From Candidatus Geohabitans tengchongensis (GTDB lineage: Bacteria > Sysuimicrobiota > Sysuimicrobiia > Sysuimicrobiales > Humicultoraceae), in NCBI GenBank assembly GCA_031459625.1, contig JAVKIH010000008.1, positions 1-64,000 on the forward strand: a stretch of 64,000 nt of DNA, given 5' to 3'. Both the position numbers and the translations under genes were made by a program. How positions within the stretch are numbered: the first letter of the stretch is position 1; every line of letters begins with the position of its first letter. The notes under the pieces are model-generated. The model was not told the DNA's origin and ran no database searches. It saw only the letters and a program-made list of their open reading frames with translations. Shown piece after piece: positions 11,393-46,776 of the stretch.

Positions 11393-12838
11393 CTACGGCT
11401 CCAGGCGGATGGCTACCATCTGGATGTTCGTCATCTCCTCCATGGCGTAGCGCACGCCCTCGCGGCCGATGCCGCTGCGGCGGTTGCCGCCGTAGGGCAT
11501 GTGGTCGGCGCGGAAGGCCGGGGTGTCGTTCACGACCACCCCGCCGAAGTTGAGCCGCCGGATCGCCTGGAAGACCCGCCCCAGGTCGCGGGTGAAGACC
11601 GCCGCCTGGAGGCCGTACTCGGTGGCGTCGGCCTGGCGCAGCGCCTCCTCGAAGTCGTCGGCGGCGATGACCGAGGCCACGGGCGCGAACGCCTCCTGGG
11701 CCACCACCTTCATCTCCGGCCGGACGTCGGTGAGGACGGTGGGCCAGACCACGGCGCCCTCGCGCCGGCCGCCGGTGACGACGCGGGCGCCGCCCTGCAG
11801 GGCTTCGGTGATCCAGGCCTCGATGCGCTCGGCCTCGCGCCGGTCGATCATCGGGCCCACGTCCACCCGCTCGTCCAGCGGGTCGCCCACCACCATCGCC
11901 TCGCTGGCTTGGACGAAGCGGTCGAGGAAGGGCTCGTAGACACGGCGCTCGGTGTAGATGCGCTGCACGGAGATGCACACCTGACCGGAGTTGTAGTAGG
12001 CGCCCACGGCGCAGCGCCGGGCCACGTACTCCAGGTCGGCGTCCGGGGCGATGATCACCGGCGAGGTGTTGCCGAGCTCCAGCGTCACCTTCTTCAGCCC
12101 GGCCAGCCGGGTGATGCGCTCCCCCACGGCGGGGCTGCCGGTGAAGGTCACCTTGGCCACCCGGGGGTCGGTGACGAGCCACTCCCCCACCGTCCCGCCG
12201 GGGCCGTGCACCAGGTTGAGCGCCCCGGCGGGCAGCCCGGCCTCCTCCAGGACCCGGCAGAGGCGGACCGCGGTGAGGGGCGTGGCGCCGGCCGGCTTCA
12301 GCACCACCGTGTTGCCCGCCGCCAGGGCCGGGGCCACCTTGTGGGCCACCAGGTTCAGCGGGAAGTTGAAGGGCGTGATGGCGGCGATGACCCCCACCGG
12401 GCGGCGCACCCAGAAGCCGAAGTAGCCCTCGCCGGCGGGGACGGCGTCCAGGGGGACCGTCTCCCCGTGCAGCCGGCGGGCTTCTTCGGCGGCGATGGTG
12501 AAGGTGGTGATCCCCCGGTCCACCTCGATGCGGGCGTACTTCAGCGCCTTGCCCGCCTCGGCGGCGATGGTGCGGGCGAACCCCTCCCGGTCGGCGGCGA
12601 TCAGCTCGGCGGCGCGCCGGAGGATCGCGGCGCGGCGGTGGACCGGCATCTCCGCCATGACGGGCGCCGCCCGCTGGGCCGCCTCCACCGCGGCCTCGAC
12701 GTCCTCCCGCCGGGCCACGGGCAGGGTGCCCAGCACCTCGCCGGTGTACTTGTTCCGCACCTCATCGGGCGCACCGCCGTCCACCCACCGGCCGCCGATG
12801 AAGAGTCGGTACTCCACGGGAGCCTGCGTGCGCTCCAC
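11393..12838 (-). CDS. Aldehyde dehydrogenase family
   Basis: ITPFNFP, FTGS, LELG, GQVCIS, EAFAPV; GGAGG SD before GTG 12838. Confidence 0.93.
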   Translation of the reverse strand: MERTQAPVEYRLFIGGRWVDGGAPDEVRNKYTGEVLGTLPVARREDVEAAVEAAQRAAPVMAEMPVHRRAAILRRAAELIAADREGFARTIAAEAGKALKYARIEVDRGITTFTIAAEEARRLHGETVPLDAVPAGEGYFGFWVRRPVGVIAAITPFNFPLNLVAHKVAPALAAGNTVVLKPAGATPLTAVRLCRVLEEAGLPAGALNLVHGPGGTVGEWLVTDPRVAKVTFTGSPAVGERITRLAGLKKVTLELGNTSPVIIAPDADLEYVARRCAVGAYYNSGQVCISVQRIYTERRVYEPFLDRFVQASEAMVVGDPLDERVDVGPMIDRREAERIEAWITEALQGGARVVTGGRREGAVVWPTVLTDVRPEMKVVAQEAFAPVASVIAADDFEEALRQADATEYGLQAAVFTRDLGRVFQAIRRLNFGGVVVNDTPAFRADHMPYGGNRRSGIGREGVRYAMEEMTNIQMVAIRLEP

Positions 12839-13189
12839 GGACGTCACCTCCCGCACTCTGGTCTGTCTCGATCATAGCCCGGCGTGCCCACCCCAGGGAC
12901 TCACAGAGGGCGCGACGGCCGTCACCACGCGGGCGATCACTCGCCGCGGGGGCATGGGTGATGCCTGAAAACGGGGAGCCTTGAGGCGCGCGCAGCTCTT
13001 CGCCGGTCGGACCGGCGGTCGTCCTGGCGGGGTGATGCGGCAGGGTGGGTGGAACGCCTTCGGCGTGCCTGCGACGTCCCGGCTACGCCTGGGCCCCACA
13101 GCGGCGGCAACCCCGCACGACCCCGGCCGCCTTCGCCGCGGCGTCGGAGCCGTCGAGGTCACCGAGCCGCAGATCCGCCGCTGGCGCGG

Positions 13190-13219
13190 CTAGTTGTTGT
13201 TGTTGTTGTTGTTGTTCAT
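13190..13219 (-). CDS. Poly-asparagine micropeptide MNNNNNNNN
   Basis: ATG-(AAC)8-TAG; AGAGGAGG SD with GGAGG 7 nt upstream; 59 nt downstream of the AsnRS-like gene on the same strand. Confidence 0.85.
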   Translation of the reverse strand: MNNNNNNNN

Positions 13220-13278
13220 CCGTTCGCCTCCTCTCTGACTGGCGTGACCGGCACTCGGCCCGGTGTGACAGAGACCGC

Positions 13279-14217
13279 TCAGGCCATCGCGTACTCCCGC
13301 AATCCGTACCGGGCGTCCACGGGGAAGGGGATGACCGTGGTGACGTCGCTGGCGCCCCACAGGTACTGGATCAGCCGGTCGAACCCCAGCCCGTAGCCGG
13401 CGCGGCGGACCGGGTTGCCCTCGAAGAGCGCCAGGTAGGGCTCGAAGACCTGCGGGTCGCCGCCCGCCTCGACGAGCTGCCGGTACATCACGGAGGTGTA
13501 GAGCTTCTCCCGCAGGATGGCGACGTCGTGCTCCCGCGCCGCCGAGCCGAAGGTCTCGCCGCTCAGCGGCAGGAGCAGGTCGCAGCACTCGACGGTCCGC
13601 CCGCCGTTGTGCCGGCTGTCCAGCATGTTGAAGAACTTGATCTCGCGCGGGTAGCGGATCACTGAGACGATCCCGTACCGGTCGGTCAGCCGGGCTTCGT
13701 CCGCCGCGCTCAGGTCCGTGCCCCACGGCAGCCCCAGGTCACCGATGGCCTGCTCGTAGGGGACGACGGTGAACGTGGTCAGGTCCTGGAGCAGGGCGTC
13801 GCGGCGCGGGGCGGGCAGGGCGGGGTGCTCCAGGGCGGCGTGGATGACGTGGCGCACCAGCCGGTGCTCGTGGGCCACCAGGTCCTCCAGGTCCCAGTCG
13901 CGCGCCTCCGCCTCGACCAGCACGAACTCACACAGGTGGCGTCCGTCCGCGCGCGGCTCCGCCCGGAAGGAGCGGCCGCGCGTGATCACCCGCGGCAGGT
14001 CCCACCGCACCACGGCCACCTCCAGGTCGAGCTGGGCGGTCTGCCGCAGGAACTGGGTGCGGCCGAGGAAGTCCAGCCGGAAGACCGTCGGGACGTTCTC
14101 GCACGCCCCGGTGCCGGGGGTGATCTCGGGCGTCTCGAGCTCGATGAAGCCCTCGCTGCGGCAGAACTGGAAGACGGCGTCCATCATCGCCGCCCGGAAC
14201 TCGACCAGGTCACGCAA
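13279..14217 (-). CDS. Class IIb aminoacyl-tRNA synthetase paralogue, catalytic domain only (AsnRS2 / asparagine synthetase-like)
   Basis: Motif 1 GFIELETPEI, motif 2 SFRAE..RHLCEF, motif 3 GYGLGFDRL; no N-terminal OB anticodon domain; probable TTG start after GGAGGG. Confidence 0.85.
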   Translation of the reverse strand: MRDLVEFRAAMMDAVFQFCRSEGFIELETPEITPGTGACENVPTVFRLDFLGRTQFLRQTAQLDLEVAVVRWDLPRVITRGRSFRAEPRADGRHLCEFVLVEAEARDWDLEDLVAHEHRLVRHVIHAALEHPALPAPRRDALLQDLTTFTVVPYEQAIGDLGLPWGTDLSAADEARLTDRYGIVSVIRYPREIKFFNMLDSRHNGGRTVECCDLLLPLSGETFGSAAREHDVAILREKLYTSVMYRQLVEAGGDPQVFEPYLALFEGNPVRRAGYGLGFDRLIQYLWGASDVTTVIPFPVDARYGLREYAMA

Positions 14218-14370
14218 TTCCCATCCCTCCCTGCAGGCCACGCGGGCCCGTCGGTGTGTGGGCGCACTGCGCCCGACTCGTGCACGAACGGGGAACCCCT
14301 CCGGTCCGGATGCCCGTGGGCGATGCGGTCGGTGGCCGTGTCACCGTTCGGGGGCGGCGAGGGCGGGGAC

Positions 14371-14402
14371 AGGAAAAGCGCCGGGAGGCGTCTCCCGGCG
14401 CT
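14371..14402 (-). terminator. Intrinsic terminator (attenuator) in the leader of the AsnRS-like gene
   Basis: Minus strand AGCGCCGGGAG-ACGC-CTCCCGGCGCT followed by TTTCCT. Confidence 0.8.
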
Positions 14403-14427
14403 GCACGATGGCGTACTCCTGCTGCAT

Positions 14428-14460
14428 CCCTTCTCCGCCTCTCCGGACGAAGTTAAAGGG
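14428..14460 (-). promoter_or_regulatory. PyrR-binding RNA hairpin (anti-antiterminator)
   Basis: Minus strand CCCTTTAACTTCGTCCGGAGAGGCGGAGAAGGG matches PyrR consensus elements CUUUAA and UCCNGNGAGGY; CCCTT/AAGGG closing stem. Confidence 0.8.
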
Positions 14461-14486
14461 TCTCGTCCTGCACGCTTGCCAGGCCC

Positions 14487-14492
14487 ACTATA
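14487..14492 (-). promoter_or_regulatory. Putative -10 box for the PyrR leader
   Basis: TATAGT about 27 nt upstream of the hairpin; no good -35. Confidence 0.4.
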
Positions 14493-46701: not shown

Positions 46702-46776
46702 GGGCGCTTAGCTCAGAGGTAGAGCGCCTCTCTGACGCAGAGGAGGTCGGAGGTTCAAGTCCTCCAGCGCCCACCA
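46702..46776 (+). tRNA. tRNA-Val(GAC)
   Basis: Acceptor GGGCGCT/AGCGCCC, anticodon stem CCTCT/AGAGG with loop CTGACGC, T-loop TTCAAGT, encoded CCA. Confidence 0.97.

Follow-up and report, generated by a model that had tools for sequence, protein, structure and literature searches.

The present study suggests that a 312-amino-acid paralogue of the asparaginyl-tRNA synthetase (AsnRS) catalytic domain, encoded in Candidatus Geohabitans tengchongensis, probably makes dihydroorotate as a single enzyme, replacing CarAB, PyrB and PyrC. The case is built on gene context, gene exclusion, fold and conserved residues, and the chemistry is what we infer. A role of the enzyme in pyrimidine synthesis as such is likely. 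To our knowledge, CarAB/PyrB/PyrC is taught as the universal route to the pyrimidine ring; a one-enzyme bypass, if true, would explain genomes that hold pyrD, pyrE and pyrF without the early genes. The 64,000-nucleotide stretch of DNA analysed here (the window) offers a clean test case, because PyrR control, the enzyme and a poly-Asn peptide sit within 1.3 kb and relatives of about 80% identity lack the peptide.

Table 1. Features of the enzyme locus in the window
Feature	Position	Strand	Basis
-10-like hexamer TATAGT	14487..14492	-	Seen directly
PyrR-binding (anti-antiterminator) hairpin, predicted	14430..14463	-	Rfam RF00515 and hairpin fold
Intrinsic terminator of the attenuator, 11 pairs and U tract	14371..14402	-	Terminator scan and leaders of relatives
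AsnRS catalytic-domain paralogue, 312 aa (start TTG at 14217, stop at 13279, GGAGG 8 nt 5' of the start); candidate Asn-dependent dihydroorotate synthetase	13279..14217	-	Pfam, NCBIfam, AlphaFold, pyr context
Shine-Dalgarno of the micro-ORF, GGAGG 7 nt 5' of ATG	13227..13234	-	Seen directly
Micro-ORF ATG(AAC)8TAG, Met-(Asn)8-stop; optional partner	13190..13219	-	Unique in genome; equivalents beside homologues

On the minus strand, a -10-like box, a PyrR hairpin, a terminator, the enzyme ORF and the poly-Asn micro-ORF follow one another, and a direct sequence check found all five parts at the positions and in the order given by the sequence-only reading. For the first of them, the hexamer is present but a promoter is unsupported: no recognizable -35 element lies upstream of the enzyme gene, and a sigma-70 scan returned 0 promoters. 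The leader matches the Rfam PyrR family RF00515 over the full model length (14463-14371, 45.7 bits, E 1.4e-4 in the 2 kb searched), a score that is under the gathering score of 54; a scan at gathering missed the site. An extended PyrR pattern has a single match in the genome, and this is the enzyme leader. The PyrR-binding segment is predicted to fold as a hairpin, and in a truncated transcript the PyrR-loop segment is predicted to pair with the terminator in competition; the terminator scan placed the 11 pairs and U tract of the terminator at 14402-14377 and gave 3 terminator-like sites against a shuffle mean of 0.6. The genome also has the expected pyrR gene, on contig C9. Binding hairpin, predicted competing pairing, terminator and regulator gene are thus all present, in agreement with the proposed PyrR-type attenuator. 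The leaders of five relatives (L038, L039, L041, L042 and L043) hold a similar GC hairpin and T run. At the Rfam gathering score, no PyrR site was found in 12 other family loci or near the pyrD operon of this genome. The only RNA run on record consists of flat-depth contigs without transcription signal. A public contig, which may be the source of this DNA, agrees with the stretch at every position compared, the repeat region being skipped. Elsewhere in the window, an ordinary tRNA gene (46702-46773, plus strand) is the sole Rfam match at gathering score, and an aldehyde dehydrogenase gene (11393-12856, minus strand) lies 330 nt 3' of the micro-ORF; it is probably unrelated and not a recurring neighbour of the enzyme family.

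Homologues place the enzyme in pyrimidine operons. Nine of 61 related genomes, this one included, encode it, with protein and profile searches in agreement. In seven of the eight close relatives, whose enzymes are 70-82% identical to the window protein, pyrD directly follows the enzyme gene, with pyrF and pyrE next on contigs long enough to show them; in the eighth, the gene has a leader with a PyrR loop. The wider family comprises 378 genome stretches confirmed by profile scan, of which the best 80 were kept and joined with 10 viral loci. At 17 of these 90 loci (best 80 of 378 plus 10 viral) the enzyme gene is followed directly by a pyr gene on its own strand, and at least five gene orders occur: enzyme-pyrD-pyrF-pyrE, enzyme-pyrE-pyrF-pyrD (Chloroflexota), enzyme-pyrK-pyrD-pyrE (L045), enzyme-pyrE-pyrD-pyrF (the archaeon L102) and enzyme-pyrF-pyrE (L127). 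The remaining 73 of the 90 have no pyr gene directly downstream. In a FastTree tree of 90 rows, with 30 redundant, partial or off-target rows left out, the family forms a single branch apart from 11 AsnRS rows (support 99), and the pyr-linked label needs 4 changes. The predicted pyrD/E/F linkage of homologues is thereby borne out.

The enzyme and carB rarely share a genome. In counts taken mostly from incomplete assemblies and from kin that are non-independent, carB is present in none of the nine carriers and in 39 of the 52 non-carriers among the related genomes, and in 0/4 carriers against 70/87 non-carriers around one planctomycete carrier. Among 50 of the best 80 family genomes (already covered ones and redundant Bathyarchaeia omitted, the four planctomycete-set carriers counted again; many small, completeness not given), carB was found in two, pyrB in 20 and pyrF in 36. 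The tallies include three genomes flagged as unpublished (G008, G018 and G069), on which no conclusion hinges. Fisher values for such contrasts are overstated, because kin are non-independent. All 10 of the 50 that have a pyr operon directly downstream of the enzyme lack both pyrB and carB. In five of five tested pyrB-less carriers the PyrC-model matches were allantoinases or dihydropyrimidinases, or absent, and G102 gave no PyrC-model match whatsoever. Together with the operons and the genomic pyrR and pyrD/F/E, this exclusion upholds the claimed pyrimidine role.

The host genome (2.76 Mb, 94% complete) carries pyrD-pyrF-pyrE on another contig than the enzyme. The sequence-only reading had asked whether pyrB, pyrC and carAB are missing here, and the answer is mixed: no full carB was found and the best PyrC-model match is an allantoinase, but a PyrB-like gene scores just above the TIGR00670 cut-off (243.5 against 236.95 bits). 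PyrB-like genes of similar score occur in all eight genomes of a genus with neither carB nor the enzyme. At G000:C12:28454-40254, genes for a hydantoinase, PyrB-like and OTC-like carbamoyltransferases, a carbamate kinase and a molybdoenzyme-like ORF are clustered, which looks like ureide or pyrimidine catabolism. The claimed bypass of the carbamoyl-phosphate-dependent steps agrees with the lack of carB in this genome and its rarity in the family. carB is also missing in 13 of the 52 non-carriers. Four relatives (G013, G026, G030 and G040) have pyrD, and neither carB nor the enzyme was found in them; they may use carbamate kinase with the PyrB-like gene, salvage, or another bypass.

The protein itself retains the AsnRS core. 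PF00152 covers the whole 312-aa protein (113.7 bits) as its only Pfam domain, and the anticodon-binding domain is absent. In NCBIfam it stays under every AsnRS, AspRS and AsnA cut-off, with 150.7 bits against 414 for AsnRS, which sets it outside the full-length family. The AlphaFold model (pLDDT 95) superimposes on AsnRS 1X54 with a TM score of 0.83, and the class II motifs and Asn-pocket residues are present. Across 106 family sequences, Q59, Q62, E66, R85, E102, E104, D213, E221, R228 and R281 are invariant and common to AsnRS, and the residues of the ATP and Asn pockets are thus retained. F195 and N197 are likewise invariant where AsnRS has A and Y, and at position 99 the AsnRS Trp is replaced in every one of the 106. 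An invariant Cys39 looked catalytic but was set aside, since 4/5 AsnRS controls also have Cys there. Structure searches found no solved structure of the family, and a protein atlas returned PF00152 clusters only. Among phage and plasmid records the window protein matched only true AsnRS, and a viral scan with this single protein as the query found nothing. Family-like representatives of 410-1134 aa (P0048, P0058, P0063, P0065 and P0100) are possible fusions.

The genome encodes a true AsnRS, AspRS and ND-AspRS, and therefore the paralogue is not needed for charging. One ordinary tRNA-Asn is present. A motif-only scan matched GatB, Pth and deformylase, and found neither AsnB nor bacterial AsnA.

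The poly-Asn micro-ORF begins 59 nt past the enzyme stop and is the sole run of at least four AAY codons on either strand of the whole 2.76-Mb genome, which has 8 runs of at least three. Equivalents adjoin eight homologues (L054, L065, L367, L351, L372, L378, L389 and L390); outside this genome their codons are mixed AAC/AAT, and Shine-Dalgarno and stop are present. The exact SD-ATG-stop framing and the mixed codons in homologues make it unlikely that (AAC)8 arose as a microsatellite. On the tree, the micro-ORF label needs 3 changes, in lineages far apart. An inverse search of metagenomes gave 31 matches, of which 9 were pure poly-Asn micro-ORFs; five of these nine, from only two lineages, adjoin a family enzyme, compared with 0/22 other pattern matches. 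The four pure ORFs without the enzyme comprise one off-frame read of a poly-Gln start, one in an NRPS cluster and two on short contigs without recognizable genes. On the metagenome contig L391 (1590-1640), an SD-Met-(Asn)7-stop is flanked by an NRPS/thioesterase-like pair on one side and a methyltransferase-like ORF on the other; the 4.6 kb of this contig contain no family enzyme, and this is possibly another poly-Asn system. Viral contigs gave 56 matches, and the single pure ORF of at least five Asn adjoins the enzyme, while pure Met-Asn4 ORFs in L215, L285 and L292 have no enzyme nearby, two of them with only about 300 nt of flank. One carrier genome holds a lone Met-Asn3-stop ORF (L171, G106:C25) away from its enzyme locus.

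The tie between enzyme and poly-Asn mini-ORFs claimed from the sequence is therefore real and repeated, but optional. Beside the gene in the eight close relatives no poly-Asn ORF was found, and nowhere in the genomes of five tested relatives do five Asn codons follow one another. Two of the 90 loci (best 80 of 378 plus 10 viral) have a pure Met-(Asn)n-stop ORF, in both cases within 200 nt of the enzyme gene, and there is none elsewhere in the 2.2 million strand-bases of those loci. In 50 carrier genomes there were 44 Met-Asn-Asn-Asn matches, and 3 of the 30 that were read are pure micro-ORFs. The best 80 of at least 593 viral loci hold none.

These distributions bear on two other readings of the peptide. 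The ORF could have a regulatory role and encode a leader peptide for sensing charged Asn-tRNA, here persisting as a displaced relic; this would be compatible with a dihydroorotate enzyme. Strong hairpins do follow the upstream ORFs in L367, L351 and L389 (-27.5, -27.3 and -34.2 kcal/mol, against shuffle means of -11.6, -18.7 and -18.9). In the window, L054 and L065, however, the ORF lies downstream of the enzyme and the sequence past it folds no better than shuffles; the window has no Asn-codon run upstream of the enzyme gene and already possesses a PyrR attenuator. We consider a leader function unlikely. Alternatively, the peptide could be an obligatory substrate, turned residue by residue into dihydroorotate in the manner of a RiPP, which is the sequence-only reading taken strictly. 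The appearances in distant lineages with mixed codons, Shine-Dalgarno and stop would suit this, as would the place of the ORF as a downstream cistron in this genome and two archaea, and so would oroA/oroB, a poly-Asn peptide and an AsnRS-like enzyme that have reportedly been published as acting in pyrimidine synthesis. The conservation of a precursor peptide in a RiPP-type pathway is not what we observe: 8/8 close relatives, 88/90 loci (best 80 of 378 plus 10 viral) and the best 80 of at least 593 viral loci lack it, as do the five carrier genomes without any five-codon run, and few of the matches read in carriers are pure. An obligatory substrate is thus quite unlikely, and the earlier claim is not supported in that form.

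Viral homologues show a different association. Their matches include the protein labelled 'tRNA ligase' in the Prochlorococcus phages P-SSM2, P-SSM5 and P-SSM7, and in P-SSM2 and P-SSM7 a tRNA-Asn lies directly 3' of the enzyme gene. For P-SSM2 (NC_006883.2), ARAGORN puts this tRNA at L397:4813-4900, directly after the gene, and the record places tRNA-Asn PSSM2_199 about 2 kb further downstream, likely a coordinate error. An atypical tRNA-Asn accompanies the enzyme in 74 of the best 80 of at least 593 marine viral loci, which are close kin. All 76 tRNAs (74 viral plus P-SSM2 and P-SSM7) have U1-A72, G73 and GUU, the anticodon having been a condition of the parsing pattern. Their cloverleaf shows strong covariation, the variable arm measures 12-37 nt, and position 37 is a pyrimidine in 65 of 76; a decoding tRNA-Asn is not known to have such a variable arm or a pyrimidine at 37. 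GUU, U1-A72 and G73 are described as tRNA-Asn identity elements for AsnRS and GatCAB in the available part of PMC9976931. The window and the 90 family loci (best 80 of 378 plus 10 viral) contain no atypical tRNA-Asn, nor do six loci of marine or metagenome origin that have a poly-Asn ORF. Since viruses have the tRNA without the peptide and these six loci the peptide without the tRNA, the two look like alternatives, and the viral pairing suggests that what the loci have in common is Asn-tRNA or a supply of Asn. When genomes were scanned with a loose pattern for the atypical tRNA, matches stayed near control level, and such tRNAs may exist elsewhere in cellular carrier genomes; relaxed calls in L045 (inside secA), L061 and contig C14 of this genome were taken as false. 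The tRNA-bearing viral sequences form a long branch (2.5 changes per column), and no pyr neighbour was verified in the viral loci, so that viral members may differ in function. A suspected viral pyrE neighbour was rejected, having no Pfam or phage match.

The enzyme might instead replace only carbamoyl phosphate synthetase, or CarAB and PyrB, making a carbamoyl donor or N-carbamoyl-Asp/Asn that another amidohydrolase cyclises. Loss of carB is indeed the tightest correlate of the enzyme, and the 20 of 50 family genomes that keep pyrB (19 above cut-off, 18 without carB; both genes together in 2/50) are the main gap in the bypass argument and count against a full bypass everywhere. Carbamate kinase occurs in four of five tested pyrB-keeping carriers, so that a classical route is possible there, and PyrB in such genomes may serve catabolism or belong to a second route; hydantoinase or allantoinase paralogues of carriers might perform the cyclisation. 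Against this stand the operons that join the enzyme to pyrD/E/F without pyrB or pyrC, the lack of any PyrC-model match in G102, and the class II aaRS site, which makes adenylates and not acyl phosphates. We regard such partial replacement as highly unlikely.

That the protein acts like asparagine synthetase A (Asp + NH3 + ATP) or charges a private tRNA, its pyr linkage being incidental, is extremely improbable: AS-A is a known anticodon-less synthetase paralogue (PMC9437257, in the part available), this genome shows no AsnB or bacterial AsnA by motif scan and viruses pair the enzyme tightly with tRNA-Asn, but the protein scores 68.6/368, 46.1/309 and 23.9/389 bits (score/cut-off) with the AsnA/AS-A models, outside PRK06462, archaeal AS-A structures reach 28.7-33.7 bits against 97.7 for AsnRS, the pocket has Asn-type features (E102 and a QLxxE motif without Lys), cellular members have no atypical tRNA, and neither function accounts for PyrR control, pyr operons and carB exclusion.

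In the one-enzyme dihydroorotate route that we favour, Asn would occupy the amide pocket kept from AsnRS, the free alpha-amine of Asn would take up CO2 as a carbamate, and the class II site would adenylate this carbamate with ATP. Attack by the side-chain amide nitrogen would then close the ring to the dihydroorotate skeleton. Asn would give N1, C4, C5, C6, N3 and the carboxyl, C2 alone being missing from it. The product would feed PyrD-PyrF-PyrE, and PyrR attenuation would repress the enzyme at high uridine nucleotides. A carrier probably keeps the alpha-carboxyl blocked and so prevents its adenylation. By default the carrier would be Asn-tRNA(Asn), from which hydrolysis would release the product (the genome has a Pth match); Asn-tRNA occurs in every cell, its amine free and its carboxyl blocked, which would explain why most members have no partner gene. 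Marine viruses would supply a dedicated tRNA-Asn, and a minority including this genome would use the poly-Asn micro-ORF as an alternative carrier after removal of Met, although methionine aminopeptidase acts poorly on Met that is followed by Asn. The peptide may alternatively draw Asn off the tRNA pool, and the upstream copies may act as a sensor. Within our confidence in the route, the larger share goes to a carrier-bound substrate and the smaller to free Asn, with peptide and tRNA as supply aids. The broadest form of the proposal, an undescribed second route to dihydroorotate, widespread among bacteria, archaea and marine viruses, by which the ring is built on Asn esterified to tRNA(Asn), poly-Asn and non-decoding viral tRNA-Asn are interchangeable carriers and carbamoyl phosphate synthetase is dispensable, is tentative and stands at somewhat less than an even chance.

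If the route is true, hundreds of genes labelled 'asparaginyl-tRNA synthetase' or 'tRNA ligase' (378 genome stretches and at least 593 viral) would need re-annotation, Prochlorococcus phages would carry a viral metabolic gene, and translation would be directly linked to nucleotide synthesis. Its novelty depends on oroA/oroB, and we put the existence of that work at about even odds. No oroA/oroB paper and no such pathway were found in the literature searched, a range outside which most subscription journals fall. If the work exists, the window is a new member, with the peptide-free and tRNA-linked forms as a variant; otherwise the finding is new in kind. oroA/oroB would resemble the window in having a poly-Asn micro-ORF beside an AsnRS-like gene, but most members of the window family lack the peptide and viruses use a tRNA.

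With class IIb AsnRS (PDB 1X54, 9SH8 and 2XGT) the enzyme shares the fold, the motif 2/3 arginines, the Mg ligands and the Asn amide pocket; in contrast to AsnRS, it has no anticodon domain, reads FFNM where AsnRS has AFYM, has lost the Trp of the EFW motif throughout the family and stands in a pyr context. Archaeal asparagine synthetase A (PDB 1NNH and 3P8T; PRK06462) is likewise an anticodon-less AsnRS/AspRS paralogue in metabolism, whereas the window enzyme scores low against it, has an Asn-type rather than an Asp-type pocket and belongs to a pyrimidine context. In their available parts, the synthetase reviews PMC7373986 and PMC9437257 name AS-A or HisZ and no pyrimidine paralogue, and many bacteria are reported to make Asn only on tRNA (PMC2330236, likewise in part).

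By analogy only, the proposed chemistry and the reserved tRNAs have counterparts in systems whose fold and product are unrelated to those of the window enzyme. TsaC/Sua5, the threonylcarbamoyl-AMP synthase, adenylates an amino-acid carbamate formed from CO2 and ATP, and FemXAB are non-ribosomal users of aminoacyl-tRNA with a dedicated tRNA-Gly. With the classical CarAB/PyrB/PyrC route under PyrR attenuation (RF00515), the window system has in common the regulator, the downstream PyrD/E/F and the proposed product. Unlike the classical route, it would need one enzyme, take both ring nitrogens from Asn and use no carbamoyl phosphate.
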